Assembly (NCBI GenBank): GCA_020348445.1 | Contig: CP070751.1 | Span: 3,875,765 to 3,939,764, forward strand | Direction of reading: 5' to 3' | DNA: 64,000 nucleotides | Origin: Thermoplasmata archaeon | GTDB taxonomy: Archaea; Thermoplasmatota; Thermoplasmata; GCA-020350865 | Notes under the pieces: model-generated | Databases searched by the model: none | The model's input: only the letters and a program-made list of their open reading frames with translations | What the model was told of the DNA's origin: nothing | Part shown: piece after piece, positions 20,662 through 58,072 of the stretch | How positions within the stretch are numbered: the first letter of the stretch is position 1 | How the letters are laid out: each line of letters opens with the position of its first letter | Program-made: the position numbers and the translations under genes

Positions 20662-20849
20662 TAGCTCCGGGCCGAAGAAATACGATATAATTGATATGTC
20701 ATTATATTTCTAGGCAAGGGGCTACTCTGGATGACGACTAGAAAAAGATAAAGAGTAGCTCCGGGCCGAAGAAATAAGACCTAATTGATGTTCTATTATA
20801 TTTCTAGGCAAGGGGCTACTCTGGGGGAAGACTAGAAAAAGATAAAGAG
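20662..20849. repeat. Two tandem 94-bp units downstream of tRNA-Gln(CTG); each a hairpin module capped by tRNA 3'-end copies
   Basis: TAGCTCCGGG at 20662 and 20756 (and TAGCCCCGGG at 20850); inverted copies GGGGCTACTCT at 20718-28 and 20812-22; inner stem GCC..AGAAATA/TATTTCT.GGC. Confidence 0.9.
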
Positions 20850-20951
20850 TAGCCCCGGGTGGATTCGAACCACCGCCTAAACCTTTTGGCATCTCCCTCC
20901 GCTGGGCAACCCCTCACAAAAGGTTTTAGGGTCATCCCAAAACTCGGGGTC
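20850..20951 (-). other. tRNA-like element: intact T arm and acceptor 3' strand, anticodon/D region replaced by a long hairpin
   Basis: 20842-20875 matches 20973-21006 at 33/34 nt; 13-bp hairpin 20876-88/20917-30; CGGGGTC at 20945-51 can close the acceptor stem. Confidence 0.7.
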
Positions 20952-20980
20952 GTCCTGCTCACTCGATGATAAATAAAGAG

Positions 20981-21054
20981 TAGCTCCGGGTGGATTCGAA
21001 CCACCGTCACGGGATCCAGAATCCCGCATGATTGACCACCTACAATACGGAGCT
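20981..21054 (-). tRNA. tRNA-Gln(CTG), archaeal type (A1-U72, A73), no encoded CCA
   Basis: AGCTCCG/CGGAGCT acceptor; CGGGA-TTCTGGA-TCCCG anticodon arm; GGTGG-TTCGAAT-CCACC T arm; weak D stem (U10/U25 and U13/U22 unpaired). Confidence 0.92.
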
Positions 21055-21080
21055 ATGTTTGTAACTTCTATGGACGAAAT

Positions 21081-21148
21081 AGGTCCGTATTAAAGTGGAA
21101 AAACGATATTATTTATTTTTGCACATTTTTCCACGGGAATACGAAGCT
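21081..21148. repeat. Upstream hairpin module of tRNA-Gln(CTG) built from tRNA 5'-end copies
   Basis: Inverted copy AGGTCCGTATT (21081-91); inner stem GTGGAAAAA/TTTTTCCAC; direct copy AATACGAAGCT ending 21148, 94 bp from the tRNA 5' end. Confidence 0.8.
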
Positions 21149-21233
21149 TTTACTATTAATTTTGATATATTTCAATTAAGGTTTGTAAAAGCAAAACATG
21201 AACATAAAGTTTTATCGTATAAAAAGGGCGAAT

Positions 21234-22934
21234 TTAAGTTGTTTTTTGTTGCTGCTGTTTTTGAATCTTGGCCCATGTGTCCCTCAATCCGACGGTTCTG
21301 TTGAAAATCAGCTTCTCTGAGTTGGAATCTGGGTCCACACAGAAATAACCAAGTCGCTCGAATTGGATTCGATCCAACGGTTTAAGGTTCTTTACTGCAG
21401 GTTCTATCTTACATGATGTTAGAACTTCGAGGGAATTAGGATTAATGAAATCCTTAAAGTCCGCATCCTTATGTCCCGCGGGGTCCTTCTCTGTAAAAAG
21501 CTTGTCGTACAACCTAACCTCGGCATCCATTGCGTGGCGAGCTGAAACCCAATGCAATGTGGATTTTACTTTACGACCATCAGGTGCATTGCCCCCTCGC
21601 GTATCGGGATCCACGGTACATCTGAGCTCAACGACCTTCCCATTCTGTTTAATAGCCTCCTTGCACTTAACAAAGTACGCATATCTGAACCGCACCTCAC
21701 GACCTGGTGCTAAGCGGTAGAACTTCTTGGGAGGTTCCTCCATAAAATCCTCTTCCTCGATGCAAAGCTCCCTGGAAAAGGGTACCTTTCGAGTCCCTGC
21801 TGATGGGTCCTCTGGATTGTTTACAGCCTCCATCTCCTCCACCTTATCATCGGGGTAATTTTCAATAACCACCTTGAGCGGTTGAAGTACACCCATGAAC
21901 CTTGGGGCTGTTTTATTCAAATCTTCCCTTATACAATATTCAAGAAATTCGAAGTCAACCATACTGTTTACCTTGGCCACGCCGATTCGCTTGCAGAAAT
22001 TTCTAATTGCAGCTGGAGAATAACCTCGTCTTCTCATTCCGCTTATCGTGGGTAACCTGGGATCATCCCACCCATTGACGTGACCCTCATCCACCAATTG
22101 TTTGAGCATACGCTTGCTCATTACAGTATAGGTAATATTCAACCTGGCGAATTCAATTTGTTGTGGATGATAGACCTCTATTTGATCCAAGAACCAATCG
22201 TATAAAGGTCTGTGATTCTCGAACTCTAAAGTGCAGATGGAATGCGTGATGTTCTCGATTGAATCTTCAAGCCCGTGTGCCCAGTCGTACATGGGATAGA
22301 TGCACCATTTTTCACCTGTGTTGTGATGACTCGCATGTAGGATTCGATATACAATTGGGTCCCGCATATTCATATTTGGGTGCGACATGTCTATCTTGGC
22401 CCTAAGAACCTTTTCACCATCTCCAAACTCACCAGCCCTCATTCTTGTGAACACATCAAGGTTTTCTTCTATTGACCTATCACGATAGGGACTTTTCTGT
22501 CCGGGACTTGTAAGGGTTCCTCTTGTTCTGCTGATTTCATCTGCAGTTGAATCATCTACGTATGCCTTACCTCTTTTAACCAACTCAACAGCATAATCAT
22601 ACATTTGATCAAAGTAATCCGAAGCAAAAAAGAGCCTATCCTCCCAGTCAAATCCAAGCCATCTTACATCCTCGATTATAGATCTAACATATTCCTCTTC
22701 CTCTTTTGCTGGATTGGTATCATCGAATCTGAGATTGCACTTGCCCTTGTAATCCTCTGCTATGCCAAAGTTCAGGCAGATAGACTTTGCATGCCCAATG
22801 TGCAGATAGCCGTTGGGTTCGGGTGGGAACCTTGTATGAACTCGACCACCGTATTTATTCGTCCTTAGGTCTTCATTGATTATATCGCGAATGAAATCGT
22901 GAGCCTCTGCCTCTTCACTGGGCATATCTTTCAC
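21234..22934 (-). CDS. glnS: Glutamine--tRNA ligase, bacterial type (no YqeY domain)
   Basis: [79 protein letters not shown] and [11 protein letters not shown]; colinear with E. coli GlnRS over the full length. Confidence 0.96.
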
Positions 22935-23075
22935 CTTAATGAGTTTGGGTTAGTAACATTTACTATTATAATTATTTTGTTAAAAGTTTTGATCTATGAA
23001 ATAAATATATTCACTCTCCCCTTACACACAAATATATATATAAAAAACAAATTCTGTTTTTATGGAGGTTAATAA

Positions 23076-23435
23076 ATGGCAAGAGTAGTACATTTCGATA
23101 TTAGTGCAGAAAATCCACAAGAATTGAGAAAATTTTATGAAACTGTTTTTGGATGGAGGTTTGAGAAATGGGAAGGCCCCATGGAGTACTGGATGATCAT
23201 GACAGGGGAGGGACCTGGAATCGATGGAGGAATGTCAAAGAGGGGAGAGCAGAACATGGACATAAATACCATCGACGTCCCAAATCTGGATGAGTTTATT
23301 CAAAAGGTTCAGGAAAAAAGAGCCACCATTGTTGCGCCTAAGATAGCTATTCCGGGAATTGGCTGGTATGCGGTTTTCAAGGATTCCGAGGGTAACATAT
23401 TCGGCATGATGCAGGACGACAAAGAAGCGAAATGA
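23076..23435 (+). CDS. VOC/glyoxalase-family protein
   Basis: RVVHFDI...FY..VFGW.F, GIDGG, IPGIGW.A.F.D.EGN..G motifs. Confidence 0.9.
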   Translation: MARVVHFDISAENPQELRKFYETVFGWRFEKWEGPMEYWMIMTGEGPGIDGGMSKRGEQNMDINTIDVPNLDEFIQKVQEKRATIVAPKIAIPGIGWYAVFKDSEGNIFGMMQDDKEAK

Positions 23436-23469
23436 GTAAAAAGCCCCGGCCCCGAGAAACAGATTCTAT

Positions 23470-23535
23470 CAGCCCCGGCCTCTTCGTGCTTAAGAACCCA
23501 ACATATCCAAGCATAACACGAAGAGAAAGGGGCTG
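23470..23535. repeat. Downstream hairpin module of tRNA-Gln(TTG)
   Basis: CAGCCCC/GGGGCTG outer stem; CTCTTCGTG/CACGAAGAG inner stem; core CTTAAGAACCCAACATATCCAAGCATAAC; 97 bp from the tRNA 3' end. Confidence 0.88.
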
Positions 23536-23566
23536 TTTCGTTTCTCTACAATTTAAATTAGAGAAA

Positions 23567-23637
23567 CAGCCCCGGCCAGAATCGAACTGGCGCCAAGAGA
23601 TCCAAAGTCTCTGATGCTACCTCTACACCACGGGGCT
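23567..23637 (-). tRNA. tRNA-Gln(TTG), 71 nt, G73 discriminator
   Basis: AGCCCCG TG GTGT AGAGGTA GCAT C AGAGA CTTTGGA TCTCT TGGC GCCAG TTCGATT CTGGC CGGGGCT G folds as a full cloverleaf. Confidence 0.92.
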
Positions 23638-23666
23638 ATTTGGTTGGAACATTAATTCAGTCAAAT

Positions 23667-23845
23667 AGCCCCTTCGTAGTAAGAAAAGCTTTGGGTTCTT
23701 GCTAGGTTTTCTTTTCTTCCTACCACGGGGCTATTTTACCACCACGGGGCTTCTTAGTTTTATTTATACTTTGATACGAATCCCCTTAGCATTAAGAAAA
23801 GCGTTCAAATTCTAATGGGAATTCTTTTCTTAATACCACGGGACT
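23667..23845. repeat. Two upstream hairpin modules of tRNA-Gln(TTG) plus a short extra 5'-end copy
   Basis: CCACGGGGCT copies end at 23732 and 23751, CCACGGGACT at 23845 (95 and 94 bp steps); inner stems AGTAAGAAAAG/CTTTTCTTCCT and ATTAAGAAAAG/CTTTTCTTAAT. Confidence 0.85.
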
Positions 23846-23875
23846 ACTTTACTTTTATTTATTCAATTCTACTTT

Positions 23876-23941
23876 CAGCCCCGGCCTCCTCGTGCTTAAG
23901 ATCCAAGCGTTTTTAAGCATAACGCGAGGGGGAAGGGGCTG
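23876..23941. repeat. Downstream hairpin module of the second tRNA-Gln(CTG)
   Basis: CAGCCCC/GGGGCTG; CTCCTCGTG/CGCGAGGGG inner stem; core CTTAAGATCCAAGCGTTTTTAAGCATAAC; 97 bp from the tRNA 3' end. Confidence 0.88.
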
Positions 23942-23972
23942 TTTCGTTTCTCTACAATTTAAATTAGAGAAA

Positions 23973-24043
23973 CAGCCCCGGCCAGATTCGAACTGGCGCC
24001 AAGAGATCCAGAGTCTCTGATGCTACCTCTACACCACGGGGCT
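23973..24043 (-). tRNA. tRNA-Gln(CTG), 71 nt, G73 discriminator; paralog of 23567-23637
   Basis: Identical to the TTG gene except at anticodon position 34 and one T-loop base; offset 406 bp. Confidence 0.93.
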
Positions 24044-24072
24044 ATTTGGTTGGAACATTAATTCATTCAAAT

Positions 24073-24165
24073 AGCCCCTTTGCAGTAAAAAAAGCGTTGG
24101 GATAGTGTTGTGTTTTCTTTTTTTACTACCACGGGGCTACTGCACTCTTAAACAACCTCGGGGCT
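24073..24165. repeat. Upstream hairpin module of the second tRNA-Gln(CTG) plus outer 5'-end copy
   Basis: AGCCCC at 24073; AGTAAAAAAAG/CTTTTTTTACT stem; CCACGGGGCT ends 24138 (95 bp step); CCTCGGGGCT ends 24165. Confidence 0.85.
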
Positions 24166-24193
24166 TATTTGATGCAAGAGAATGCATAAACAA

Positions 24194-24202
24194 TTATAAA
24201 AA
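24194..24202 (-). promoter_or_regulatory. Candidate TATA box for the tRNA-Gln cassette
   Basis: TTTTTATAA on the minus strand about 30 bp upstream of the outermost 5'-end copy. Confidence 0.4.
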
Positions 24203-24229
24203 TCATTGGTTGTGAAAAATATGTTTTAG

Positions 24230-25843
24230 CTATTTGGCTACTTCCCCGATTCTTCCCACAACAAATCCCTTGTCCAAGGTGGATAAAAAATAACCTAGCC
24301 TAGGCCCATGCTTCTGATCGAGTATTGCCTGATATACCAGTTGAAAGGCCGTTTTAGACTTGATATTCTGGATCTGAGCCAATTCATAAATCGCATTATG
24401 GATGGCATCAGGTGCCCATTCCTCTTGGGTGAGCTTGATTGATAGGTCTTCAAGGTATTTCTTATGGTCGGATTCCAAGGTTATCTTAGGAGTTTCCTTT
24501 GCGATTGAGAACTTAACCTTTTCAGGTGCAAAATTGTCAAGCCAGAACTTCACACATCCTATTCTCTGCTTTAGGTGATTCTCATCCTCTTTGCTGAGAC
24601 TTTCAAAATGCTCTGCCCTCTTCAAGATATCTAGGATTCCTTCAAAGTCCTCATTGATCTGAACAACACTTACAAGATGTCTATAAGGTATTTGCAAAGG
24701 AAGTTTAGAGGGAAGGGAAAAAGGCTGAGAGAGTTCATAGGTTCTCGCCAATTCCTCCTCAATCTTCTCGATTCGTTTGGACTTGTCATCTGCGCTACCT
24801 TCGAAATATCTTTTCTCTGTTGAGTCGTATTCGTCCACGAGGTTTAGAATTCCAAGGCCTGGATCAAAATCAAGATGCTTAATTGGATTGTTTCTAAGAA
24901 CAAAGTACCTGAAAACCTCGGGAGGGGTCATCTTAAGCATTTTGGCTGCGCTGATCACAACACCAGTCGAGGATGACATGGCACCCTTACCCTTTAACTG
25001 AATCCATTCGTAGACAACATATTGTGGAGCCTTCCTATCAAAGACCTCCTCTGAAATCCTCTTTGCTGTGTCGTACGATCCTCCAGCTGCTGCATGATCT
25101 TTACCAAAAGGTTCGAATGTAACCCCTAAAAACCACCACCTTGCAGGCCAATCAACCCTCCACGGTAGCTTGCCATCGTCTTTTCGCAAATCCGCTTTAC
25201 CTTCATGACCACAAGAGCAAGTATAATTGACATATGGAAATTCATAGCCAATGACCTTGGTTGTGGTAAGCCGCCCACATTCACTGCACTTCGGATTGTA
25301 AGGAAACCAGTCATCGGGAAGATCACGTTTTGAAATATCCTGGAGTATCTCCTTTATCCTATCTTTATTGTCCAGCACCTTTCTAGATGCCTCTGTGTAC
25401 ATTCCCTGAGCGTACATTTCATGGGAGAGAAGGACATTGGCCTCTATCCCAAGAGTTTTTGCAGCATCGAGAAATGGAGTAAGAAAATGCTCGGCATAGG
25501 ACTTGTGGCTACTGCATGGACAGGGAATTTCGGAGAGAGGTTTACCCACGTGCTCCTTATAGCTTTCATCTAAAAAAGGATAAACCTTACGAAGGGGGTC
25601 GATGGTATCGCCAATGTATATCAATTGGGCTTCAACATTCTTCTGTTTAAGACCCCGAGTTATTACCTCACCTGTAAGAATCTCCCGCATATTGCCAACA
25701 TGGATGTCTCCAGAAGGGGTAATCCCTGTAGCTATCACATGCCTTTCAGAAAAACTTTGGAGCCTCTTACTCTCAACGTCAACCCAGTGCATTCTCTCAC
25801 GCAATCGTACGGGCTCTAATAAGCGATCTAGTGGGCACACCAT
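24230..25843 (-). CDS. lysS: Class I lysine--tRNA ligase (likely start MHWVD near 25792)
   Basis: TGITPSGDIHVGN, KLPWRVDWPARW, EPFGKDHAAAGGSYD, MSSSTG and GPRLG motifs. Confidence 0.95.
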   Translation of the reverse strand: MVCPLDRLLEPVRLRERMHWVDVESKRLQSFSERHVIATGITPSGDIHVGNMREILTGEVITRGLKQKNVEAQLIYIGDTIDPLRKVYPFLDESYKEHVGKPLSEIPCPCSSHKSYAEHFLTPFLDAAKTLGIEANVLLSHEMYAQGMYTEASRKVLDNKDRIKEILQDISKRDLPDDWFPYNPKCSECGRLTTTKVIGYEFPYVNYTCSCGHEGKADLRKDDGKLPWRVDWPARWWFLGVTFEPFGKDHAAAGGSYDTAKRISEEVFDRKAPQYVVYEWIQLKGKGAMSSSTGVVISAAKMLKMTPPEVFRYFVLRNNPIKHLDFDPGLGILNLVDEYDSTEKRYFEGSADDKSKRIEKIEEELARTYELSQPFSLPSKLPLQIPYRHLVSVVQINEDFEGILDILKRAEHFESLSKEDENHLKQRIGCVKFWLDNFAPEKVKFSIAKETPKITLESDHKKYLEDLSIKLTQEEWAPDAIHNAIYELAQIQNIKSKTAFQLVYQAILDQKHGPRLGYFLSTLDKGFVVGRIGEVAK

Positions 25844-26408
25844 CCATTTCGTACATAGGTGTCTTGTTCACAATAACCACGGACAACAAAGGATTGGCTC
25901 CCTGCTCCTTCAAATCGGCAATGGCACACTTCATAACATGTCCGGTGCTTATCACGTCATCCACAATTACTACATCCTTGCCCTCCAAGGTAGCATAATT
26001 CGAACTAAAGGTACCCTTGCCTTCATCGGTAACTGGTGGCCTGTAAATACCAAGCTCCAGTCCCAGATCCTCGGCAACCATTGTAGCAAAAGGTATTCCA
26101 TTAATTGCTATACCCACCACGCAATCCACCTTTTCTATCTCCTGCTTTTCCATCTCCTCGAGGATGACATCGGAAAACAAACCCGCTATTAAACCGATGC
26201 GACCTCCGTATACACCGATTGATCTCCAACCAACCTTCACATCTATGGGAGGCTTCTCAACCTTCACATTCCTTGTCAAAAGCCAAGATACAGTATCAAC
26301 AGAAAGGTGCAGTTCATGAGATATTTCACTCTCACTGAGACCGTTTCTCTTGAACTCTAGAGCCTTTTCTACGAGAGCATCGATACTTTTCATAATCAAC
26401 CCTCCCAA
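25797..26408 (-). CDS. gfcR: PyrE-like protein with N-terminal HTH (GfcR-type regulator)
   Basis: KA.E....GL...EI..EL.LS.DTV.WLL HTH; VGIAINGIPFA; VVIVDDVISTG PRPP loop. Confidence 0.8.
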   Translation of the reverse strand: MGGLIMKSIDALVEKALEFKRNGLSESEISHELHLSVDTVSWLLTRNVKVEKPPIDVKVGWRSIGVYGGRIGLIAGLFSDVILEEMEKQEIEKVDCVVGIAINGIPFATMVAEDLGLELGIYRPPVTDEGKGTFSSNYATLEGKDVVIVDDVISTGHVMKCAIADLKEQGANPLLSVVIVNKTPMYEMDGVPTRSLIRARTIA

Positions 26409-26460
26409 CCTAATCGGCTAATGTCTATATTAGATTTTGCTTATAATTATTTCGAGGATA

Positions 26461-27330
26461 TCATTTGCCAAATTCTTTTTTAGAATCCATTGTTGCGGAT
26501 CGAATGTCCTTTTCTAGAAGCCTTTGAAGTTCTGAAAAAAGTTCCATTCTCGTATCCCTTATAGTAGGGCGAAATTCCCTTGCAGTGGAAAGCTCCTTCA
26601 GATCTATATCACATTTTACGACATCTTCCTTGAAATATTCACCTTTTGCTTTAACATCCCCCCTTGGGCCGATTGCGGTATTACCGCCCCAGTATACCAT
26701 ATTCAACTCGGTTCCCACCAGATTAGTGTAAGTGAAGAAAATCGTGTTCTCAATGGCTCTGGAAACGATCACCTTTTCAAAAAATGGTCTCGTAGTCGAG
26801 GGGGAGGCAGAAATACACACCAAGATGTCTGCTCCTTTCAGAGCATATATCTTGGACACCTCTGGGAAGAAACAGTCAAAGCATATCAACATTCCAATTT
26901 TCCCGATCTTGGTTTCAAAAACGGGTAGCTCATTACCATAACCAAAGTATTGGTGTTCCTCAAATGGCCCAAAATTGGCAAGGTGCAATTTTCTGTAACA
27001 GCCTACCTCTTCATTTGGATAGACCAAAACAGAGCTGTTGTAATATAGGCCCTCTGGCTCCATTGCCTTCTCAGGCATGCCGAAGACGATGTGCGTGTCA
27101 TATTCTTTCGCAATCCTTGCAACCTGCATAGCTGAGGGGCCATCAAGAGGTTCGGCAAGCTTCGTGAGGTTGTCACGGCACATATAGCCAGAAAGGAACA
27201 ATTCCCCAAATACAACGATATCTGAATCCGAAGTTTTTACTACATTCTCTATTTTATCCAGATTTGTTTTTTTATCCCCTAAAGCGCAAAATTGCTGTGC
27301 AAGAGTTAATTTCATTACCGTCACCACCAA
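26461..27330 (-). CDS. Carbon-nitrogen hydrolase (nitrilase superfamily)
   Basis: Catalytic triad motifs VFGEL, YRKLHL and ICFD. Confidence 0.9.
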   Translation of the reverse strand: MVVTVMKLTLAQQFCALGDKKTNLDKIENVVKTSDSDIVVFGELFLSGYMCRDNLTKLAEPLDGPSAMQVARIAKEYDTHIVFGMPEKAMEPEGLYYNSSVLVYPNEEVGCYRKLHLANFGPFEEHQYFGYGNELPVFETKIGKIGMLICFDCFFPEVSKIYALKGADILVCISASPSTTRPFFEKVIVSRAIENTIFFTYTNLVGTELNMVYWGGNTAIGPRGDVKAKGEYFKEDVVKCDIDLKELSTAREFRPTIRDTRMELFSELQRLLEKDIRSATMDSKKEFGK

Positions 27331-27520
27331 TAACTTTAGATAGGAATTGCGTTAATATATAATATCTATTATGTTGTATATGCTTGAATAAAATGAGATA
27401 TAGTATTGAGGAATAAAGGAGATTGAATCTGAAAATCAAAATATTACATCCACAAAGAAAATTCTAAATACCAACGATAAATTGTAGATAGGGAATAATT
27501 CGCAAAAGAGGTTTAAAGCC

Positions 27521-28522
27521 ATGGTAATCGCTTTGGAAAGCAAGGAATTGAGGGAAAAGATACTGGCCAATCCAAAAAGGATCCTGAATATTGCGAAGAA
27601 CATGGGTGCCAATGTAAGGCATTCCGAAAAGCTCTTCGACGCTTTAATGAACGATTTTTTAAGTGCAGATGAGTGGCATAGCAAGTTAGAGGAAATGATC
27701 GACCTCACTTCCCTGGCGATAATTGAATCCCTCAGAGCCGAGTTCAAAAAGCAGGGTCTTGGAGAGTTCGATGTAGAGAAATATTTTCTTAGAGCGATGC
27801 TGCAACTGAAGCAGTCCACCCCAGATAGTATAAAAAAGGCTCAGGAATCGATAAAGAGGGCAAAGACCGAGGCGAAAAGGCTTCAAAGTGCAAAAAAGGA
27901 GACTTTGAAAATTACCCTTGAAATAGAGGCTATGCTAAAGGAAGCAAAAGAGCAAAATAAAGCTAGATCACCCAGAAATGAATATCAAAAAATAGCGGGG
28001 GGCCTCAAAGAGACCTTGAAAGTTTTGGATAGTGGTAACTATGAACTTGCGCTTTACATGGCCAAGAGACTTTCAAAAGAGGCTGAAAATCTCAAAGATA
28101 TCAAGCTCATAGCTCTGAGAAACGCGGCGAAAGCAGGACATGTGGTTTCAAAGGTGAAGGGGGAGGATCCTGGGTCTTTACCTTCAAATGCCCTTACAAA
28201 ATTAAACACCTTTTTAAGCACGATAAAATATCTTCTGGAAGAGGAGGACTATCAAACCGCTACACTTCTTGCAAGAGAGGTGAAGTGCGAGGCCGAGAAG
28301 TTTCTGCCTCCCGATAAGGTGGGCATTTCCAAATATGTCTGTCCCATATGTTTTGACTTAAATTGTCCCAATGTACTTTGCAATCTCAGTATTTCACCAT
28401 CGCCACTGGCAAGGGAAACCTGCAGAACTTACTGCACTTGTGGAATGCTCTATCATATCTGTTGCGTTCAAAAGGGAGCCCATTTAACTTGCGTTTCGTG
28501 TTTGAGGCCTTTGAAGGGATAA
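27521..28522 (+). CDS. Hypothetical helical protein with C-terminal RING/PHD-like Zn finger
   Basis: Coiled-coil-like body; CPIC...CTCGMLYHICC...CVSC at the C-terminus. Confidence 0.7.
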   Translation: MVIALESKELREKILANPKRILNIAKNMGANVRHSEKLFDALMNDFLSADEWHSKLEEMIDLTSLAIIESLRAEFKKQGLGEFDVEKYFLRAMLQLKQSTPDSIKKAQESIKRAKTEAKRLQSAKKETLKITLEIEAMLKEAKEQNKARSPRNEYQKIAGGLKETLKVLDSGNYELALYMAKRLSKEAENLKDIKLIALRNAAKAGHVVSKVKGEDPGSLPSNALTKLNTFLSTIKYLLEEEDYQTATLLAREVKCEAEKFLPPDKVGISKYVCPICFDLNCPNVLCNLSISPSPLARETCRTYCTCGMLYHICCVQKGAHLTCVSCLRPLKG

Positions 28523-28608
28523 GGATCTAATTATATACACAAATTTTATTTTTCTTTAAACCACAAATCACATAATACCAAAATACAAGTGATTTAAATG
28601 AGTATAAA

Positions 28609-29304
28609 TCAGGAAAAAAACCGTTCTATTTCATTAATAATGGTTACTTTAATGCTCTCTGCCTTCTTTTGAAGATTATCCATGTCATTTTTCGTTTTGC
28701 TTACGAAATCCTCATCTTCAATATATTTCAGGTTCACCTTCACATTCAAGATAGCCCCCGAAAAACCTGAATATGCTAAAAGAGCTCCTACACCAGAGTC
28801 TGTTATGGCATTTTGGTTACCCTTTGCTGTAGTAAATTGCCCTAATTCTATGACCCTAAGGCATTTTTTCGCCACTAAATAAGGTACACTAGCTGCCCTC
28901 TTGTAGGCACTTTGTAGTTTCTCATTTCTTATGGCCTCATCCTTGATTTTGAAGGCTTCCATAACTTCACAGAAAGCCTCCATATCCTTTTTGGAAAGGC
29001 CAAATAGTTCCTCTCTTAGGGCCTCGGCTTCTTCCAAAATCCTTTTCATTTCGTCCTCAACAACCCCATACTTTTTCTTTCCAATGGTGAGATTGCATAC
29101 CATCGAGATCAGGGCAGCGCCAAAGCTGCCTGCAAGGGCGGCCACACTTCCTCCCCCTGGGGCAGGGGAGTCGGAAGATATTTCCTTTAGTAAATCTTCG
29201 ATGTCGGATTCGATATCCAAAAACTCACTCCCACAACCTGTTCTCAAGAATCTGGGATTTATCAAAATTCTCAATTCTGAGGTAATAATCTGCAGCATCC
29301 ACAA
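28609..29304 (-). CDS. Formiminotetrahydrofolate cyclodeaminase/cyclohydrolase (true start probably near 29219)
   Basis: SDSPAPGGGSVAALAGS.GAAL..MV..LT.GKK; GN.NA.TD; LNV.VNL. Confidence 0.9.
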   Translation of the reverse strand: MWMLQIITSELRILINPRFLRTGCGSEFLDIESDIEDLLKEISSDSPAPGGGSVAALAGSFGAALISMVCNLTIGKKKYGVVEDEMKRILEEAEALREELFGLSKKDMEAFCEVMEAFKIKDEAIRNEKLQSAYKRAASVPYLVAKKCLRVIELGQFTTAKGNQNAITDSGVGALLAYSGFSGAILNVKVNLKYIEDEDFVSKTKNDMDNLQKKAESIKVTIINEIERFFS

Positions 29305-30124: not shown

Positions 30125-30162
30125 GATATTCGGCCCTCCAAGGGAATGGATAAAAGGGAGAG

Positions 30163-30828: not shown

Positions 30829-30829
30829 G

Positions 30830-31393: not shown

Positions 31394-31481
31394 AAAACAT
31401 CCAGTATTTCTAATATTTGAACCAAGGAAAAGCATAATAATAACCTAAGATATTAACGTAATAACGCAGGGTGAATATGAT

Positions 31482-32883: not shown

Positions 32884-32908
32884 ATTGGTATTTTAAGAGG
32901 GGATATAT

Positions 32909-40187: not shown

Positions 40188-40502
40188 CTATCGGGAATTG
40201 GGTTGGCCTTATAAGATTTTTGCTTTTAGGTAATTTATTGTTTTTTTGGTGTATTTGCCCTGGATTCTTTGCTTTATGGGCGGGCGGAGGGGGCAAGGAG
40301 GCCTGAGGTTTAAGATCTAAGTATTATAGAAACATAACCAAAGGATAAAGTGTTCCTTGAATAAACTTTAATAGGAATTAAGGGGAACACGGTGGTGGGA
40401 AAGGGCCAAACAATTATCACCCTGGATTGAAAACCTGAAAAAGTTAATATAAAAGGGTTCCATATGAGAGCGTTTATAAAGGGTTGAAAGGCGGATACAT
40501 AA

Positions 40503-46274: not shown

Positions 46275-46298
46275 TAAATCCATGGCTTAGGATTTCTT

Positions 46299-47552: not shown

Positions 47553-47589
47553 TTTAATCCACTACTTTTAGGGTAATGATTTATGTCTC

Positions 47590-50430: not shown

Positions 50431-50572
50431 ATTATCTCCTTTTTACAGAGGGGACTTTTAATAACATTGCATACGGCCCTGAGGTTTGTTTTACATATTA
50501 ATTTTTATCAAATTCTGATGAATATGAATTATCATCCATGCAAATATTGCCATAATTTTATATGAACTTCTT

Positions 50573-50605
50573 ATACGCAATCCCCTTTTTTCTAATAAAA
50601 GTTAC
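50573..50605. repeat. 33-bp direct repeat, copy 1 (copy 2 at 53549-53581); likely shared promoter element
   Basis: ATACGCAATCCCCTTTTTTCTAATAAAAGTTAC vs ATACGCAATTCACTTTTTTCTAATAAAAGTTAC, 31/33 identical; contains TTTTATTA on the minus strand. Confidence 0.7.
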
Positions 50606-50784
50606 CCCTTAGTTATCTTGATACAAAAGTAGTGACTTTTTTCGATATGTCGGTTAAACATTTGGCAATAGATATTAATATTTTCTGCAATAATCTTAAT
50701 ACGGCATTTTTTTCTCGATGGTTCCTATAGTAATTTATTTAAGTTGTTTTCGCATTTTACTCGATATTCATAGTGAAATAGAAT

Positions 50785-51618
50785 ATGGTCGATTTTATGG
50801 GTAAATCCGATATTTTGATATTTGCCCCTCATCCCGATGATGAGGCATTGGGCTGTGCAGGTCTGATATATTCCTCAATTAAGAAAAATAAGAAGGTTAA
50901 GGTCGTAGTGGTGGCAAACGGTGAATCCAGTGTCGACGGAACTGAAAGGTATTACGGCCATAAACCAGAAACCCAGGATTTCATTAATATTGGGTATGTA
51001 AGACAAAAAGAATCTGTCTCAGCAATGAAAGTTCTGGGCCTTTCTTCTGAAGATGTGATATTTTTAGGATACCCAAACGATGGTCTTATGGAAATGCTCT
51101 CCTCTGATAAATACGACAAAGAATCACCCTATAAATCCGAATTTACGCATTTTGATCGGGTTTCATACGAAAATTCTTATAGCATGGGTGCACCATTCTG
51201 CAAAGAGAGTTTCTATTCTGACATCAAAAGCATTTTCAATGAGTGTAGACCCAGGGAAGTTTATGTAACACATCCACTAGACAGCCATTTTGACCATCAG
51301 GCATGCGGCAGATACATTAGCTCTTATGTAAAACAACTTGATAATTCGATACGCGTCCTTTGCTATGTCATCTCCCCATCGAAAATTCCGTCCCCCAAAC
51401 AAAGCCTTGTGTACAAATTAGCTGGGCAAATGACAGAAAGACATCTTGATAAAACCGCAAAAGAAATGAAAAAAAGATTTATGGACGAATACAAATCTCA
51501 GAGTTATTTATTTGATCAAGTGGCATTTCATTTTAACGTTGAAAGATATTGGAAGCTTAAGCGCGGTGTAAGGGCAAAAATCGCGAAAAAAATATTTCCA
51601 AATTTAAGATTCTTATAA
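50785..51618 (+). CDS. PIG-L family deacetylase
   Basis: APHPDDE, R..ES..A, LGYP.D and D.H.DH motifs. Confidence 0.92.
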   Translation: MVDFMGKSDILIFAPHPDDEALGCAGLIYSSIKKNKKVKVVVVANGESSVDGTERYYGHKPETQDFINIGYVRQKESVSAMKVLGLSSEDVIFLGYPNDGLMEMLSSDKYDKESPYKSEFTHFDRVSYENSYSMGAPFCKESFYSDIKSIFNECRPREVYVTHPLDSHFDHQACGRYISSYVKQLDNSIRVLCYVISPSKIPSPKQSLVYKLAGQMTERHLDKTAKEMKKRFMDEYKSQSYLFDQVAFHFNVERYWKLKRGVRAKIAKKIFPNLRFL

Positions 51619-51623
51619 TATAA

Positions 51624-52778
51624 TCATTTGGTCGATTTTCTTTCGAACTGCTTGATCGCTTTTTTTAGAACCTTTTCATATTCCATTGCTTTCTTTTCCC
51701 ATGTAAAATCCTTGGCCCATTTTATTCCTTTTTCAGATAATTGGTTTCTTTTTTCAGAATCAGTAAGCAGCCTTCCCAAAGTATCGACCCATAAGTCTAT
51801 ATCTTCAGGTGGAAGAAGAACAGCATTTTCTCCTGTTGACTCCCTTAATCCAGGGATATCAGAAGCAACGACTGGCAATCCACAGGCCATGGCCTCGATT
51901 GAAACCAAAGGAAATACCTCGCTTTTTGTTGGAAACATTAAAAGCGTGGCAGAACGATAGTATTTGAACACATCATTGTAAGGAAGAGAACCTGTGAGCT
52001 GGATCTTATCTTCAAGTTTATACATATTTATCTTCTCTTTTAATTCTCCCAAGATATCGCCCTCTCCCACAATGGTCAATCTCAGGTTGGGAAACTGTTT
52101 TACCAATCTTCTAAATATCTCGATCAATTCAAAAACCCCTTTTGTCCTCTGCAATCTTCCCACAAAAAGTAAAGAAAGCTGTTCACCCTCTTTTTTCGCT
52201 TTTATATTTTCAATATCAGGGAGGATATGGGAGGGTATACCAGGAGTGACAACATCTTCGATAGTAAAACCATGGGCATTGGAGATAAGGGACTGTGTAT
52301 TTCGACTTACTGCGGCATACAGTGTGGATTTGTCTGCATTAAAATATTCCTTTGAGTACGGGCCTCCGAGAATGTGAAAGACTGATGGGACACCAAGCTT
52401 AAATGCCAGGTTTGAGAACAATCTGCTGTCCACCCAGTAATGTGTGGATATAACATCCATGTCTTTGATTCTTCTCTTTATTTTAGGTCTTAAAAGTAAA
52501 TTATAATAGAAACTGTATGCCTCTGTTCTATAAGGTGTTAAGCGACGCACGAGTTTGGATGCAAGTCTATTCATAGGTGTGAACCTAAGCCAAAAGGGCA
52601 CAGTTACAACCTCATACGGGCCATCCATAAGCACCTTAAGCGTGGATTTGTGCCGAGTTCTTCCCGTGAATATCGTAACTTCATGTTTTTTGCCTAAATA
52701 TCTAGCAAATTGATGGACTATGGTTTCCGTGCCCCCTGTGATGGTGCCTGCTGAAGGACTTATGAAGCATATTTTCAT
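51624..52778 (-). CDS. Glycosyltransferase family 4
   Basis: GGTE, FVGRL...KG and E.FPLV.IEAMACG.PVV; close paralog of 53611-54756. Confidence 0.93.
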   Translation of the reverse strand: MKICFISPSAGTITGGTETIVHQFARYLGKKHEVTIFTGRTRHKSTLKVLMDGPYEVVTVPFWLRFTPMNRLASKLVRRLTPYRTEAYSFYYNLLLRPKIKRRIKDMDVISTHYWVDSRLFSNLAFKLGVPSVFHILGGPYSKEYFNADKSTLYAAVSRNTQSLISNAHGFTIEDVVTPGIPSHILPDIENIKAKKEGEQLSLLFVGRLQRTKGVFELIEIFRRLVKQFPNLRLTIVGEGDILGELKEKINMYKLEDKIQLTGSLPYNDVFKYYRSATLLMFPTKSEVFPLVSIEAMACGLPVVASDIPGLRESTGENAVLLPPEDIDLWVDTLGRLLTDSEKRNQLSEKGIKWAKDFTWEKKAMEYEKVLKKAIKQFERKSTK

Positions 52779-52850
52779 ATCAAATTCTCCAAGTCCACCG
52801 TAGAAATCACGCTCCCTTCACTTAATTAAATAATTGTAACTATCATTTCT

Positions 52851-53561
52851 TTAGTTGATCTTCTCCTTTATTCCATATACGAAGAATTTATCCCATTCAT
52901 GTAAAGGTAGTTCTGTTCCATCAGCTGTGGAGAAAGCTGACATTTTAATGATTTTAATGCCTAGCGATTCAAGGAATTTACTGATCTCTTTGGGTACATA
53001 GCTTCTCGTATTAAGGCGAGCTTCACTATCTGTGAGATATTCATATTCATAATGTCCTTTATAATTTCTGTCGATAGTTGTAAAAAATAACTGGCCGCCT
53101 TGATCTAATATGCGAACCATTTCGCTTAAGGCATCTTCCCATGAACCATCAAAATTTTGCAATACAGCAATCGAGATAATACAATCCATACTGTTGCTTT
53201 TGAATGGGAGCCTTATGATGTCACCCAAAAAGAACTCAGCAGGAAGATTTTTTTGTCTTGCAACTTTCACCATGTTTGGTGATGGGTCAATCCCGAACAT
53301 ATTAATATTACCGTAATTCTCGCTTAAGAACTCTTCAAAATTACCTACTCCACACCCAACATCAACCATGCTCATATTTTCTTTGATCTCGATATTTGAA
53401 AGGCAAATATTATATCTATATGACATGCTCTTTTTGGATGAATATCCCACTTTTTCGTGATCATTATTAAAAGATTTGGCTCTTTCATCAAACCATTTAG
53501 TCCATTGCATTTTTTCACCATCTTGCATATTATAGCATAAAGAACTACATACGCAATTCAC
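52851..53561 (-). CDS. Class I SAM-dependent methyltransferase (start probably ATG 53510)
   Basis: VDVGCGVG, GIDPS and LPF..NS.D. Confidence 0.88.
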   Translation of the reverse strand: MNCVCSSLCYNMQDGEKMQWTKWFDERAKSFNNDHEKVGYSSKKSMSYRYNICLSNIEIKENMSMVDVGCGVGNFEEFLSENYGNINMFGIDPSPNMVKVARQKNLPAEFFLGDIIRLPFKSNSMDCIISIAVLQNFDGSWEDALSEMVRILDQGGQLFFTTIDRNYKGHYEYEYLTDSEARLNTRSYVPKEISKFLESLGIKIIKMSAFSTADGTELPLHEWDKFFVYGIKEKIN

Positions 53562-53610
53562 TTTTTTCTAATAAAAGTTACTACTTTATTTTTCTAATTG
53601 AGATAAAAAC

Positions 53611-54756
53611 TCATTTGCCAGGGCCTTTTTTGAAGATATCTATAGCCTTTTGCAGTGCTTTTTCATACTCCTCTGCCTTCTTTTCCCAGGTAAAATCCCT
53701 TGCCCATTTTATTCCATTTGCGGACAGATTGCTTCTCTGTTTTTCATCTTTAAGTAGTTTACCTATGGTATCAATCCATAAATCTACATTCTCAGGTGGA
53801 AGGAGGACAGCATTTCCTCCTGTTGAGTCTTTTAAACCGGGAATATCTGAGGCCACGACTGGTAATCCACAAGCCATTGCTTCCAGGGGTACAATACCGA
53901 AAGTCTCGCTTTTGGATGGGAAAATGAACAACGTAGAATCAAAATAATATTCAAATATTTTATCATATGGAACCTGGCCTGTGAAAATTATTTTTTTATG
54001 CAATCCGCGCGATTTCGCCAATTCTTTGAGTTTTCCCATGATGTCTCCATCGCCCACGATCGTTAAACTTAAATTCGAACTTGTCTCGGATAATTTGGAA
54101 AATATATCGATTAATTCAATTAATCCCTTTGTTTCCTGTAGTCTTCCCACAAATAGTAACCTTTTTTCTTGTTCACCCCTCTCTTTTTGCTGATGGGAAA
54201 ACAACCATGAGGGGATACCAGGAGTGACCACATCTTCTATTTTGAAATCATGGGCATCATTTATGATTTTCTGAGTGTATCCACTTGTTGCTACATATAA
54301 GGTAGATCTATCAACATTTAAGAGAGCTTTCGGATAAGGGCCTCCAAGAATGTGAAAAACAGACGGCACATCGAGCTTGAATGCGAGATTGGAGAACAAC
54401 CTGCTGTCCAACCAATAATGGGTGGATATAACGTCCATATCCTTGATCCTCTTTTTTATTTTCGATCTCAGAAATACATTGTAATAGAAGCTAAATGATT
54501 CGGATTTATAGGGTGTTAGGCGGCGAGAAAGCTTGGTTGCAAAATTATTCATGGGCGTGAACCTAGGCCAAAATGGAACAGTTAAAACCTCGTATGAACC
54601 TTTTTTAAGGTTGTTCTGCATGGTTTTATGCCGGCTTCTTCCAGTTAAAACCGTTACCTCATTTTTCTTACTCAATTGCTCTGCAAATTGATGGACTATG
54701 GTTTCCGTCCCTCCTGTGATGGTTCCAACAGATGGGCTTACAAAGCATATCTTCAT
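53611..54756 (-). CDS. Glycosyltransferase family 4
   Basis: GGTE, FVGRL...KG and ETFG.V.LEAMACG.PVV. Confidence 0.93.
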   Translation of the reverse strand: MKICFVSPSVGTITGGTETIVHQFAEQLSKKNEVTVLTGRSRHKTMQNNLKKGSYEVLTVPFWPRFTPMNNFATKLSRRLTPYKSESFSFYYNVFLRSKIKKRIKDMDVISTHYWLDSRLFSNLAFKLDVPSVFHILGGPYPKALLNVDRSTLYVATSGYTQKIINDAHDFKIEDVVTPGIPSWLFSHQQKERGEQEKRLLFVGRLQETKGLIELIDIFSKLSETSSNLSLTIVGDGDIMGKLKELAKSRGLHKKIIFTGQVPYDKIFEYYFDSTLFIFPSKSETFGIVPLEAMACGLPVVASDIPGLKDSTGGNAVLLPPENVDLWIDTIGKLLKDEKQRSNLSANGIKWARDFTWEKKAEEYEKALQKAIDIFKKGPGK

Positions 54757-56402
54757 TTTTTATCCTCCGAATCCATCTGTGAATTACCATTGTTTTTTCC
54801 CCAAAATTTCAATCGTGCTTTTATCCTGTTGAATATATGCTTTATCTCACCTTTTTCTTTGGTATCAAGGCCCTTGAAATAGAACAGTAGAAGATATAAA
54901 CAACATCCAAATCCAAAATACAGGACAATTTCCACTGAATCCTTTATAAGACCGAATAGTGTGGTGTGGGTTCCAATTATATATGGGGGGCGCAGTAATA
55001 TCGCCCCGTACATTGCCAACGATACTATCCCTGCAAAGGGAAATGTCTTGGCAAATACCTGTTTTGCATAGTCCCCCCATTTAATATCAAGAACTTTAAA
55101 AACATGCGCAAGGAACAGAACCTCCAAGAGTACAAATGGGATGGTGGTTCCCAAAGCTACACCAGTAAGACCATAACCTTGCTGCACAAGAAAGACGCTG
55201 AGACATAGGTTCAAAAGAGCCACAATACCATAATATCTCACGAACTTTTTTATCCTGTTCATGCCGATAAGTATCTGGGTGGCAACGTAATTGTTAAAAT
55301 CGAAAAAAATGGAAATCATCAAAATCTGAACAATTATGTAATATTGACCGTACTCGTCTCCCATCCATATCGTTAACATTCCCTCAGAGAGAAAAAACAA
55401 TGGTACACCCAAAGCGAGACTCAGAGCAAGTACGTATTTAGTTCCTCTTAAAAACAGCCTTCTTAGAGCTGGGAGGTTGTCCGTTGCCTCCAACTCCGAT
55501 GCTGCGGGAATTACGGCGTATAATCCTATTTCCGGTATTCTGGTTGGTATACCATAAAGTTTCCATGCTGCCTGATAAAATGTTAATAAGGTTACATCCA
55601 CCAGTAATCCAATCACCAACCTATCCGTGTAATATATAACCATTATAAAGACAGAGAGAAGAAATACGCTCATACTGAGATCCATTAGAACCTTGATCAT
55701 ATCACGTTTCACATATGAAAATTTGATGGTAACATGGGGTAATAATTTTTGAACAAACCAGGCAGTTAGAATAAATCCAATCAACCCAACACAGGAGGTA
55801 TAAAATACCAACTCAACCACACCCATTCCCATAGACAGCACAAGAACAACAACGACAACGTTTACAATGGACATAATGAAAGTTATCATTGCTAAAATAT
55901 CATATCTCTGAAGACCCGCTAAAATACCCTTAAGCGATGCAAGGGATAGGCTGAACATGAAGATTGCACCTAGGATATAGATTATGGCTCTTGCCTTGGG
56001 GTAAAAATCAGGTGCATCTAACGCAGGAAATGTTCCAGATAGGAATTCCAATAAAAAAGTACCAATTAAAAAAATAATCAATGCACTTGCGATGCCAATA
56101 AAAAGGAATATAAAAAACGAGGTGTTGATAACCTCATTAAGCTTTTCTTTATCATCCTCGGCATGATATTGAGCCACGAATTTTACAAGTGAGTTGCCTA
56201 TTCCCAGGTCTAAAATCCCGAAATAACCTGTTATCGCCGTGATAAATAAATATATCCCATATTCTGTCTCCCCAATATTCCCTACAATATACCAAAACAA
56301 AACAAATGTTAGGGCAAAACCCCAGAAGCGAATTGCGTAATTCACGATGGTATTTCTAATCAACTTACTTTTAACGCTCAAGTTTTTAACCCCGCAATTC
56401 AC
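54753..56402 (-). CDS. Wzx/MOP-family oligosaccharide flippase
   Basis: 12-14 TM helices, DLG......KFVA and Y.D..VIG motifs. Confidence 0.88.
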   Translation of the reverse strand: MNCGVKNLSVKSKLIRNTIVNYAIRFWGFALTFVLFWYIVGNIGETEYGIYLFITAITGYFGILDLGIGNSLVKFVAQYHAEDDKEKLNEVINTSFFIFLFIGIASALIIFLIGTFLLEFLSGTFPALDAPDFYPKARAIIYILGAIFMFSLSLASLKGILAGLQRYDILAMITFIMSIVNVVVVVLVLSMGMGVVELVFYTSCVGLIGFILTAWFVQKLLPHVTIKFSYVKRDMIKVLMDLSMSVFLLSVFIMVIYYTDRLVIGLLVDVTLLTFYQAAWKLYGIPTRIPEIGLYAVIPAASELEATDNLPALRRLFLRGTKYVLALSLALGVPLFFLSEGMLTIWMGDEYGQYYIIVQILMISIFFDFNNYVATQILIGMNRIKKFVRYYGIVALLNLCLSVFLVQQGYGLTGVALGTTIPFVLLEVLFLAHVFKVLDIKWGDYAKQVFAKTFPFAGIVSLAMYGAILLRPPYIIGTHTTLFGLIKDSVEIVLYFGFGCCLYLLLFYFKGLDTKEKGEIKHIFNRIKARLKFWGKNNGNSQMDSEDKK

Positions 56403-56633
56403 ACATCAGGTTAATAACCTCATATTATTAGCAGATTACAGGATATTCTGGTACCTTATCAATGTTTTGAGGTAGAGAACGATTATTTATACCATATAAA
56501 ACAGTTATTTTCCTATGATTAATAGGGGAAAGGTCCAAAATGTGAATTTAAAGATACCTCCTATGGAAAACTTTACTTTCCAAGTAAGACATATCCCTTT
56601 GAATTTATATTTATTACAATAAAACATCGGGAT

Positions 56634-57092
56634 TTGGTGAATAATATGGAATTACTATCCAAATACCATGTAATAAAAGACGCCGAGATAGGTGAAGGAA
56701 CCATAGTAAGGCATTACGTCAATCTATATGGCTGTAAAATCGGAAAAAACTGCAAAATAGCCTCCTTTGTTGAGATTCAAAAGAATGTTGAAATCGGTAA
56801 TAACTGCAAAATCGAAGCCTTTGCATATATGCCAACTGGAGTAACTATTGAGGATGAAGTGTTCGTAGGGCCACATGCGTGTTTTACAAATGATAAGAAA
56901 CCAAGCGCAAAAGGGGATTGGGAGGTTATGCCCACGCTCGTTAAAAAAGGTGCATCCATAGGAGCCAATGCCGTGATTTTGTGTGGAGTTACCATAGGGG
57001 AGAACGCCATAATTGGTGCAGGCAGCGTGGTAACAAAGGATGTTCCACCAAATACAGTAGTGGTGGGCAATCCCGCTAGACCTATTAAATAA
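56634..57092 (+). CDS. Hexapeptide-repeat sugar N-acyltransferase (WbpD-like)
   Basis: IG.NCKI repeats, GVTIED.VFVGP...[12 protein letters not shown] and GAGSVVT..VP. Confidence 0.9.
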
Positions 57093-57135
57093 AAAGAATG
57101 GAAAATTATCATTTTGAAAAAAAGGAGGTGCTATA

Positions 57136-57594
57136 ATGCAAGCAACAATAGAAACCAATAGAGGTATGATATTACTGGAACTGTTTGATAAGGACACCCC
57201 AAAAACGGTGGAGAACTTCGTGAAGCTGGCAAAAGGTGGATTTTACGACGGTCTTAAATTCCACCGCGTGATCGCCGATTTCATGATCCAGACCGGTTGT
57301 CCAAAGGGAGATGGAACAGGGGGACCTGGATATCAGTCGGATTGTGAGATCATGCCCCACCTGAAACATGAACCTGGCACCCTGTCCATGGCACATGCAG
57401 GGACCTGCGAGCACAGTGGCTCTGGTGAAAAAATATCGGGTCGATGCTCCAATGGGTCGCAGTTCTTCATAACCCATGTTGCCACACCCTGGCTTGATGG
57501 TAAGCACACAGTGTTCGGGCGTGTTTTGGAGGGCAAGGACGTGGTGGACAGTATCAAGCAGGGTGACACGATTCAGAAGGTTACAATACAATGA
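57136..57594 (+). CDS. Cyclophilin-type peptidyl-prolyl cis-trans isomerase
   Basis: TP.TV.NF, FHRVI..FMIQ.G, LSMAH, GSQFFIT and [10 protein letters not shown]. Confidence 0.95.
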
Positions 57595-57633
57595 TAATTG
57601 GTACCAATAAGCATCTTATTGATATCCGATTTT

Positions 57634-57782
57634 GTGGAGCCAGCGGGTGTTCGAGATTAAGAACTCGTTAACGTCCAAACATAACTCGAACACGAGCTGG
57701 GTCCACGAATGACACAGCGGGATGTTTGAGCTTAAGAATCCTATGATGTCCAAGTATAACTCGAACATCAAGCTGGGTCCAC
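57634..57782. repeat. Two downstream hairpin modules of tRNA-Ala(CGC)
   Basis: Inverted copies GCTGGGTCCAC at 57696-706 and 57772-82; inner stems GTGTTCGAG/CTCGAACAC and GATGTTTGAG/CTCGAACATC; cores ATTAAGAACTCGTTAACGTCCAAACATAAC and CTTAAGAATCCTATGATGTCCAAGTATAAC. Confidence 0.88.
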
Positions 57783-57807
57783 GGATTAATTCTATATAAA
57801 AAATAAG

Positions 57808-57881
57808 TGGACCCAGCGGGATTTGAACCCACGGCCTCTGCCTTGCGAAGGCAGCGATCTTCCAGTCTGATCTATGGGCCC
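57808..57881 (-). tRNA. tRNA-Ala(CGC)
   Basis: GGGCCCA/TGGGTCC acceptor with G3-U70; CTGCC-TTCGCAA-GGCAG anticodon arm; TTCAAAT T loop; A73. Confidence 0.95.
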
Positions 57882-57905
57882 GAATGATATTGATGTTTCA
57901 TCTGA

Positions 57906-58072
57906 GGGTCCAGAGATAAAGAGGGAAGTAGATTATTATTTATTTTCAATTGACTTGCCTCGAGATCTATGGGCCCGAATTATATTATTTTCCAATTTGA
58001 GGGGGCATAGACAAAGAGGAAAGTAGGTCACATTTTTCTTCCATTCAACTTTCCTTGGGTGTCTATTAGCCC
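57906..58072. repeat. Two upstream hairpin modules of tRNA-Ala(CGC)
   Basis: GATCTATGGGCCCGAAT repeated 95 bp later (GGGCCC ends 57976); decayed copy ends 58072 (96 bp); inverted copy GGGTCCAGAGAT at 57906; inner stems GAGGGAAGT/ACTTGCCTC and GAGGAAAGT/ACTTTCCTT. Confidence 0.82.

Follow-up and report, generated by a model that had tools for sequence, protein, structure and literature searches.

Hairpin modules carrying copies of tRNA gene ends at the borders of tRNA genes in an order of uncultured Thermoplasmata

The stretch of DNA analyzed here, called the window in the following, comprises 64,000 nucleotides from an uncultured Thermoplasmata archaeon (assembly GCA_020348445.1, contig CP070751.1, positions 3,875,765 to 3,939,764). 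It holds four tRNA genes, three for tRNA-Gln and one for tRNA-Ala, all of which lie on the minus strand and were called by ARAGORN and Rfam. All four are accompanied by hairpin modules in which the end of the adjacent tRNA gene is repeated. In each module a lineage-specific hairpin core is enclosed by two arms that repeat the gene end, in inverted orientation on the side near the gene and in direct orientation on the far side. Each arm takes in 10-13 bases, sometimes ~20, from the end of the neighboring tRNA gene and a further 0-5 bases from its flank. A full-text literature search found no published description of such tRNA-end hairpin modules. The host belongs to an order of uncultured sediment archaea for which six genomes were used (G000 to G005, 80-91% complete). 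Five of these (G000 to G004) form one genus and G005 represents a sister family. The source genome, G000, is a 5.16-Mb draft of 41.5% G+C with contigs linked via 100-N spacers; G001 was deposited as a complete chromosome, and the complete genome G006, the record behind locus L008, served as outgroup.

Copies of tRNA ends were searched for in the window with the first and last 11 nt of each tRNA as queries and up to 2 mismatches allowed. At all four genes this own-end search recovered the shared flank architecture that an earlier note on this DNA had described, with steps of 94-99 nt (74 and 131 nt in places); about 13 modules were counted where that note had spoken of some 12. On the 5' side the order is direct copy of the tRNA start, inner hairpin, inverted copy, a linker of 24-27 nt and the gene. 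On the 3' side, the gene is followed by a T-rich linker of ~25-31 nt, the inverted copy of the tRNA end, an internal loop of 3x3 or 4x4 nt, an inner stem of 9 bp, a loop of ~28 nt and the direct end copy. The 3' modules of two tRNA-Gln genes (23567 and 23973) and of the tRNA-Ala gene belong to one family, termed type-1, and an alignment of 24 type-1 (3') modules was used to build a covariance model, R1. When the 13 module stretches of the window were folded as single-stranded DNA and compared with shuffled sequences, the two-tier hairpins gave z-scores from -1.3 to -4.8, and eight of the 13 were matched by no shuffle.

The first tRNA-Gln(CUG) gene (20981-21054; Gln a) lies directly 3' of the gene for glutaminyl-tRNA synthetase (GlnRS). 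Its 5' module (21081-21148, minus strand as for all tRNA-associated features of the window) is composed of a tRNA-start copy in direct orientation at -94, an inner hairpin of the CGTGG...CCAC type and an inverted copy at -37, with 1 mismatch in each copy and a fold z of -2.9. On the 3' side, copies end at +131, +225 and +319. The step of 131 nt is a unit of another element family (20850-20980, from sequence inspection and end search) that ends in a copy of the Gln a T-arm and acceptor 3' strand. It is one of several additional unit types of 115-131 nt that terminate in such a copy; units of its own type also lie behind the tRNA at G000:4743739 (Thr by ARAGORN) and, conserved, in the orthologous loci L001 and L002. 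Beyond it, end search and folding revealed two tandem 94-nt modules (20662-20849), with a weak R1 match at 20748-20826. The Gln a acceptor stem differs from its orthologues in L001 and L002 by one compensated pair, and by comparison with these the direct copies in the 3' modules have the derived tRNA end while the inverted copies have the ancestral state.

Around the tRNA-Gln(UUG) gene (23567-23637), 5' copies were found at -95, -114 and -208 and 3' copies at +97 and +126. The 5' side (23665-23847) comprises a proximal module (23665-23734), a lone copy of the tRNA start (23741-23751) and a distal module (23778-23847), with z-scores of -4.8 and -4.1. The 3' side (23441-23566; z -4.8 and -4.7; R1 73.8 bits) begins with a palindromic linker (23536-23566), in which the tRNA end pairs with its own inverted copy, and continues with a type-1 module (23470-23535) and a partial end copy (23441-23451). 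The second tRNA-Gln(CUG) gene (23973-24043; Gln b) has 5' copies at -95 and -122, which correspond to a module at 24071-24140 (z -4.6) and a degenerate copy of the tRNA start at 24155-24165 (whole 5' side, 24071-24165). An AT-rich stretch ~28 nt upstream of this degenerate copy reads like an archaeal TATA box. The 3' side of Gln b (23876-23972) has a single copy at +97 and comprises a linker (23942-23972) and a type-1 module (23876-23941; z -3.6; R1 63.7 bits). Finally, the tRNA-Ala(CGC) gene (57808-57881) is preceded by two modules (57906-58072) at 57906-57976 (z -1.3) and 58001-58072 (z -3.6), with copies at -95 and -191. Its 3' side (57635-57807) consists of a T-rich linker, module a (57709-57783) and module b (57635-57706), with z-scores of -2.2 and -4.7 and R1 scores of 68.1 and 79.5 bits; inverted copies were detected at +37 and +113 and direct copies at ~+99 (by eye) and +173. 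The gene itself is intronless in the window, whereas its counterparts in three sister genomes (L107, L108 and L110) are each predicted by ARAGORN to have an anticodon-loop intron of 25-50 nt that follows position 38 or 39.

The same search was then applied to the tRNA set of the whole genome (n=58, Infernal and ARAGORN), made up of 40 non-array tRNAs and 18 from one tRNA array. Here, a hit required that the 11-nt end of a tRNA recur on the matching side at a distance of 40-250 nt, with no more than 1 mismatch; the ends of other tRNAs served as control. Own-end copies were present at 26 of the 40 non-array tRNAs as against 7 of 1930 comparisons with other tRNAs' ends (0.4%), an enrichment of ~100-fold. 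They cluster at fixed offsets on both flanks, and the position-class counts agree. The prediction that the pattern would be found at other tRNAs and in relatives was thus borne out, as it is also present elsewhere in the order (see below). The stronger statement that every tRNA gene is bracketed describes the window (4/4) and not the genome, where 14 native tRNAs and all 18 tested array tRNAs are free of own-end copies. The array (G000:C1:4640571-4643566) consists of ~20 densely packed tRNA genes, several with unusual ends, and may be a recently acquired or foreign cluster. Genome-wide, 10-13 nt (up to 23) of the tRNA are contained in the copies, as opposed to just 0-5 nt from outside of it, and inverted copies are shorter and less well preserved than direct ones.

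What the first reading had missed is that the hairpin cores constitute a repeat family spread over the whole genome, some members of which lie away from tRNAs. R1 has 58 matches in G000, mostly behind tRNA genes, including some outside the tRNA list. Part of them are solo twin-hairpin elements without an adjacent tRNA, in which a CGTG-type hairpin is followed by a type-1 hairpin. One of these is situated in the window (40283-40420, minus strand), where the 5'-type hairpin is directly followed by the type-1 hairpin (R1 35.6 bits); it lies in a divergent intergenic region, and ~8 similar solo copies occur elsewhere in the genome in C-rich contexts. In the alignment of 24 type-1 copies the stem top, GTTA/TAAGC around one bulged base, is invariant and the loop ends are conserved, the 9-bp inner stems vary freely and the outer arms are specific for each tRNA. 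The bulge separates the 9-bp stem from a stem top of 3 bp, whose three pairs are invariant in 24/24 copies; the bulged base is a G in 14/24. The 5' modules have a distinct shared core, CGTGG...CCAC, and the linker motifs next to the tRNA are conserved. Double-hairpin versions were also noted (G000:C1:4783824-4784133, 2560505-2560629 and 3218665-3218745), in which one pair of tRNA-derived arms encloses two type-1 hairpins separated by a conserved spacer of ~13-15 nt.

Within the order, the type-1 core was found in all five genomes of the genus, with 24-52 matches each, and was not found in G005, the sole other genome of the order; R1 itself had 24-45 matches per sister genome. G005 has the same two-flank architecture built from other cores, with a conserved loop and linker motif of its own, at 12 of 21 tRNAs as opposed to 2 of 348 in the control. 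Modules are a feature of most native tRNAs in six of six genomes of the order, notwithstanding the turnover of their primary sequence. In the outgroup G006, own-end copies were present at none of 20 tRNAs. The order tRNA-Gln/GlnRS/tRNA-Gln is common to many Thermoplasmata, and own-end copies at this arrangement were observed solely in L001 and L002 and in one 5' example at L018; they were absent from the other 17 archaeal loci tested. L018 stems from a more distant member of the Thermoplasmata (GlnRS 73% identical) and contains one tRNA-Gln 5' module (1960-2156) in which the duplicated stretch includes ~20 nt of the leader.

Orthologous loci differ in their modules. At the Ala(CGC) gene in four genomes of the genus, the number of 3' modules is two, three, one plus a remnant, and one truncated, and that of 5' modules is two, one, one and two, and differences in the inner stems are compensated changes. 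In G004 this tRNA has a different acceptor stem and the arms follow it, with a perfect direct copy and an inverted copy that lags two bases behind; the loop is largely as in G000. The tRNA-Leu(GAG) gene is identical in G000 and G001. On its 5' side G000 has an insertion of 167 nt between two direct 13-nt copies of the tRNA start, the distal one of which sits at the position of the gene start in G001. Behind another tRNA, ~190 nt corresponding to two modules are present downstream in G000 only, and the distal end copy adjoins a trailer that resembles the native trailer of G001. MITEs have terminal inverted repeats, a target-site duplication of fixed length and a related autonomous element; here the bracketing direct repeats are 8 to 23 nt long, and no autonomous partner element was found. 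Modules appear to swap sequence with tRNA ends, and a gene and its direct copies share derived acceptor-stem states.

Is pairing in the modules maintained at the level of RNA or of DNA? The earlier note had stated that inner stems differ in sequence and yet stay paired, and the alignment bears this out: in the inner helix of the 24 type-1 modules, 94% of the cells are paired, with 41 two-sided changes versus 1 one-sided change and almost no G-U. Folding of both strands gave a clear signature for the tRNAs, with 61 G-U pairs on the sense versus 19 on the antisense strand and -757 versus -664 kcal/mol. For the 5' modules the values were 37 versus 41 G-U pairs and -628 versus -658 kcal/mol, and for the 3' modules 106 versus 78 and -1097 versus -1107 kcal/mol; a simpler mismatch count in the modules gave 5 G-T versus 13 A-C. 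At four modules beside listed tRNAs the loop is on the strand opposite to the tRNA. The 3' modules start past the run of T in the trailer. As tRNAs without modules are also followed by a comparable T-rich trailer, it is probably the native terminator. Archaeal transcription terminates at oligo-T and should stop before the 3' modules. The modules look like DNA-level palindromes rather than selected RNA structures, though they may still have a role as RNA, and these results show that pairing is kept up by copying one arm from the other and not by wobble-tolerant selection.

Several more specific candidates were rejected. The 3' inverted arm of the Ala gene matches the reverse complement of the final 11 bases exactly, with an A opposite U70, and is not a copy of the tRNA 5' strand. 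It is therefore a copy of the adjacent DNA end and no mimic of the acceptor stem or a minihelix; moreover, both the discriminator and the base that follows it take part in pairing within the hairpin. By inspection, the internal loops are symmetric (3x3 or 4x4) and do not consist of two 3-nt bulges 4 bp apart, which eliminates bulge-helix-bulge sites of the splicing endonuclease. Derivation of the inner stem from the host T-loop was dismissed as T-loop variant and module stem are not associated. Box motifs of H/ACA or C/D guide RNAs and K-turns were not seen by inspection, no dedicated test having been run, and Rfam was negative.

We tentatively favor the interpretation that the modules are non-coding fold-back DNA repeats that arise by template switching at tRNA gene ends and are amplified by slippage, and put its probability at roughly 0.4. 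During replication, a template switch would place a reverse-complement copy of the gene end outside the leader or trailer, on the other side of a short spacer. A second switch back would then add a direct copy beyond the hairpin, which would yield the direct-inverted-direct order and leave the gene intact. Slippage or unequal recombination between direct end copies would add or remove units of ~95 nt and set the period, and the same processes could homogenize the direct copies with the gene, such that these track changes in the tRNA. No dedicated enzyme would be needed. According to published work, a single template-switch event can generate copies of neighboring sequence in reverse complement as well as compensatory changes that span several bases (PMC8794818). 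Palindromic copying, indel polymorphism bracketed by repeats, covariation restricted to Watson-Crick pairs, lack of an RNA strand signature and restricted distribution are established here, and the occurrence of the same architecture with unrelated cores in G005 leads us to favor a general copying process over one particular element. The footprint of a dedicated tRNA-targeted duplication or recombination mechanism, one of two options offered in the earlier note, is supported in part: the bracketed insertions, the exact reverse-complement arm and the compensated Watson-Crick changes speak for such a footprint at the DNA level, whereas the word dedicated lacks support as no enzyme was found.

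A number of observations weigh against template switching. The process happens in all organisms, yet the pattern is confined to one order (apart from L018). The invariant core positions, that is stem top, bulged G and loop ends, together with the separate motifs of G005, look like protein recognition. Furthermore, the geometry is very regular, the persistence of the architecture across two families could point to selection, and the evidence from orthologous loci is of presence and absence. Because template switching leaves core conservation, regular spacing and restriction to one order unexplained, explanations based on an enzyme or on a function were retained.

One of these holds that the modules have been selected as DNA boundaries or terminators for highly transcribed tRNA genes, as a back-up for read-through or long-leader precursors, or as small hairpin RNAs. 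Their presence at most native tRNAs of the whole order despite sequence turnover fits with this idea, as do the conserved core positions and the linker motifs by the tRNA, and the 5' modules would be contained in a long leader if the promoter-like AT-rich stretch upstream were used. However, sense-strand wobble or energy asymmetry is lacking, covarying pairs include almost no G-U, loops can be flipped, and modules are truncated, lost or present in differing numbers at orthologous loci. Outgroups with the same tRNAs and the 18-tRNA array do without modules, the 3' modules would begin past the point where transcription ends, and the window contains no Rfam 15 family at gathering score besides the four tRNAs. 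We consider a selected function unlikely, and the conserved tRNA-precursor architecture that had been the earlier note's other option is disfavored by the same lack of a wobble signature, by the position of the 3' modules past the trailer, by flipped loops, by variable copy number and tolerated truncations and by the module-free outgroup.

Another explanation, to which we give no more credit, is that the cores are small mobile elements moved by a dedicated, structure-specific nuclease or recombinase, of the Y1/HUH or another type, whose substrate is folded single-stranded DNA, and that insertion at tRNA borders copies the target end both ways. It would account for invariant stem-top pairs, one bulged G and conserved loop ends among freely covarying stems, for the solo twin-hairpins away from tRNAs among the 58 genomic copies, for cores that differ between the genus and G005, and for insertions between direct repeats reminiscent of target-site duplications. 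Y1 transposase genes exist in six of six genomes of the order, with five matches in G000. However, none of them has module hairpins nearby, and the pair of Y1 genes, which is not syntenic, forms part of a normal IS-like unit that has a repeated end of its own; a RAYT-like association was rejected on these grounds. Cas1 (PF01867) is absent from all six genomes, which rules out a casposase, and tyrosine recombinases (PF00589) are represented by just two partial matches in G000, both far from modules. The absence of integrases and transposases from the window, also claimed early on, holds for tyrosine recombinases, Y1 and Cas1; DDE transposases were not searched for. The duplicated length, too, is variable (8 to 23 nt), and we know of no transposition chemistry that gives an internal inverted copy of the target. 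Viral contigs yielded 19 pattern matches, which we ascribe to chance because none was confirmed by R1; a viral origin was discarded. Beside the Y1 pair, a segment of 80 nt (L103:1946-2025, G000:C1 ~4215538-4215617) has at least 8 copies in G003 and 2-3 in G002. It is unrelated to the tRNA modules and seems to be the terminus of an IS200-type element that spreads as a miniature repeat.

Equally doubtful, and of the same rank as the two preceding proposals, is an active DNA system of a new kind that would recognize the folded core, install it at tRNA borders and copy the gene end in both orientations. Much less probable is that the modules are decayed scars of integrative elements such as viruses, plasmids or casposons that entered tRNA genes and duplicated their att core. 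Direct copies of tRNA 3' ends, including the units of 115-131 nt ending in T-arm plus acceptor copies, are in line with this origin, and tRNA genes are common targets of archaeal integrases (PMC8371274). Inverted copies, modules on the 5' side and the fixed size of ~95 nt are not predicted by it, Cas1 is missing and integrases almost so, and gene remnants were not present in the modules. An assembly artefact can be dismissed, as five further assemblies made independently, including a complete chromosome, have the same modules at the orthologous loci.

When compared with known systems, the modules fail one defining feature of each element family tested, namely the RAYT gene, the integron integrase with its cassettes, or Cas1. 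REP, BIME and REPIN sequences are extragenic palindromes mobilized by RAYT (Y1 HUH) transposases. The modules resemble REPs and REPINs in being dozens of short intergenic hairpins that are confined to a lineage and frequently form tandems or pairs, and in that their stems covary and features close to the hairpin are conserved; they differ from them by arms made from the neighboring tRNA end, by clustering at tRNA borders and by the lack of a flanking Y1 (RAYT) gene. Integron attC sites are imperfect palindromes with an extrahelical base that occur in arrays and are thought to act as folded single strands. The modules share with them the imperfect palindrome, the conserved extrahelical base, the variable central part and the arrays, whereas cassettes or open reading frames between modules and an integron integrase are lacking and the outer arms come from the adjacent gene. 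Successive modules are ~95 nt or less apart, which leaves no room for a gene between them. In the model for tandem inversion duplications the order is direct-inverted-direct. This order, reverse-complement copies of nearby sequence, perfect stems and compensated change without G-U intermediates connect the modules with such duplications and with template-switch products (PMC8794818). Those products are sporadic, whereas the modules have conserved cores and spacing and occur systematically on either flank of the majority of tRNA genes in one order. Casposon target duplications amount to 14-15 bp. As with casposons and the att duplications of tRNA-targeting integrases (PMC8371274 and PMC6614799), the inserted DNA lies between direct copies of the tRNA 3' end and the gene is regenerated. 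Unlike such insertions, the modules come without integrase or Cas1, include inverted copies and 5'-side insertions, and insert ~80-170 nt devoid of genes. The E. coli tyrT locus carries distal tandem units that each end with a copy of the tRNA 3' end. It is, however, a single locus with direct copies only and has neither an inverted-copy hairpin nor a 5' counterpart.

As by-products of template switching, if that is what they are, the modules would constitute an unusually clean natural record of this process, systematic at structured and highly transcribed genes in one lineage, and would raise the question of what differs in the replication or repair machinery of these archaea. If they were driven by an enzyme, they would represent a new way for DNA to enter beside essential genes without breaking them, with arms copied from the target. 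An active system of a new kind would define a class of its own, either of mobile elements templated by their target or of machinery that copies gene ends, with a reservoir of end copies as a side effect from which acceptor stems could change quickly. For practical purposes, modules confuse the annotation of tRNAs and repeats in metagenome-assembled Thermoplasmata genomes, and they mark native as opposed to acquired tRNA genes.

The enzyme encoded between the tRNA-Gln genes is also worth mentioning. The GlnRS gene (21234-22934, minus strand) specifies a bacterial-type glutaminyl-tRNA synthetase in an archaeon, and its placement with tRNA-Gln genes on both sides recurs in most of ~20 Thermoplasmata loci examined. 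The nearest loci belong to metagenome genomes of Thermoplasmata and 'Methanomassiliicoccales', and the next-best homologs, at ~70% identity, are from Planctomycetota and Chloroflexota, which suggests that the synthetase was acquired by an old horizontal transfer.

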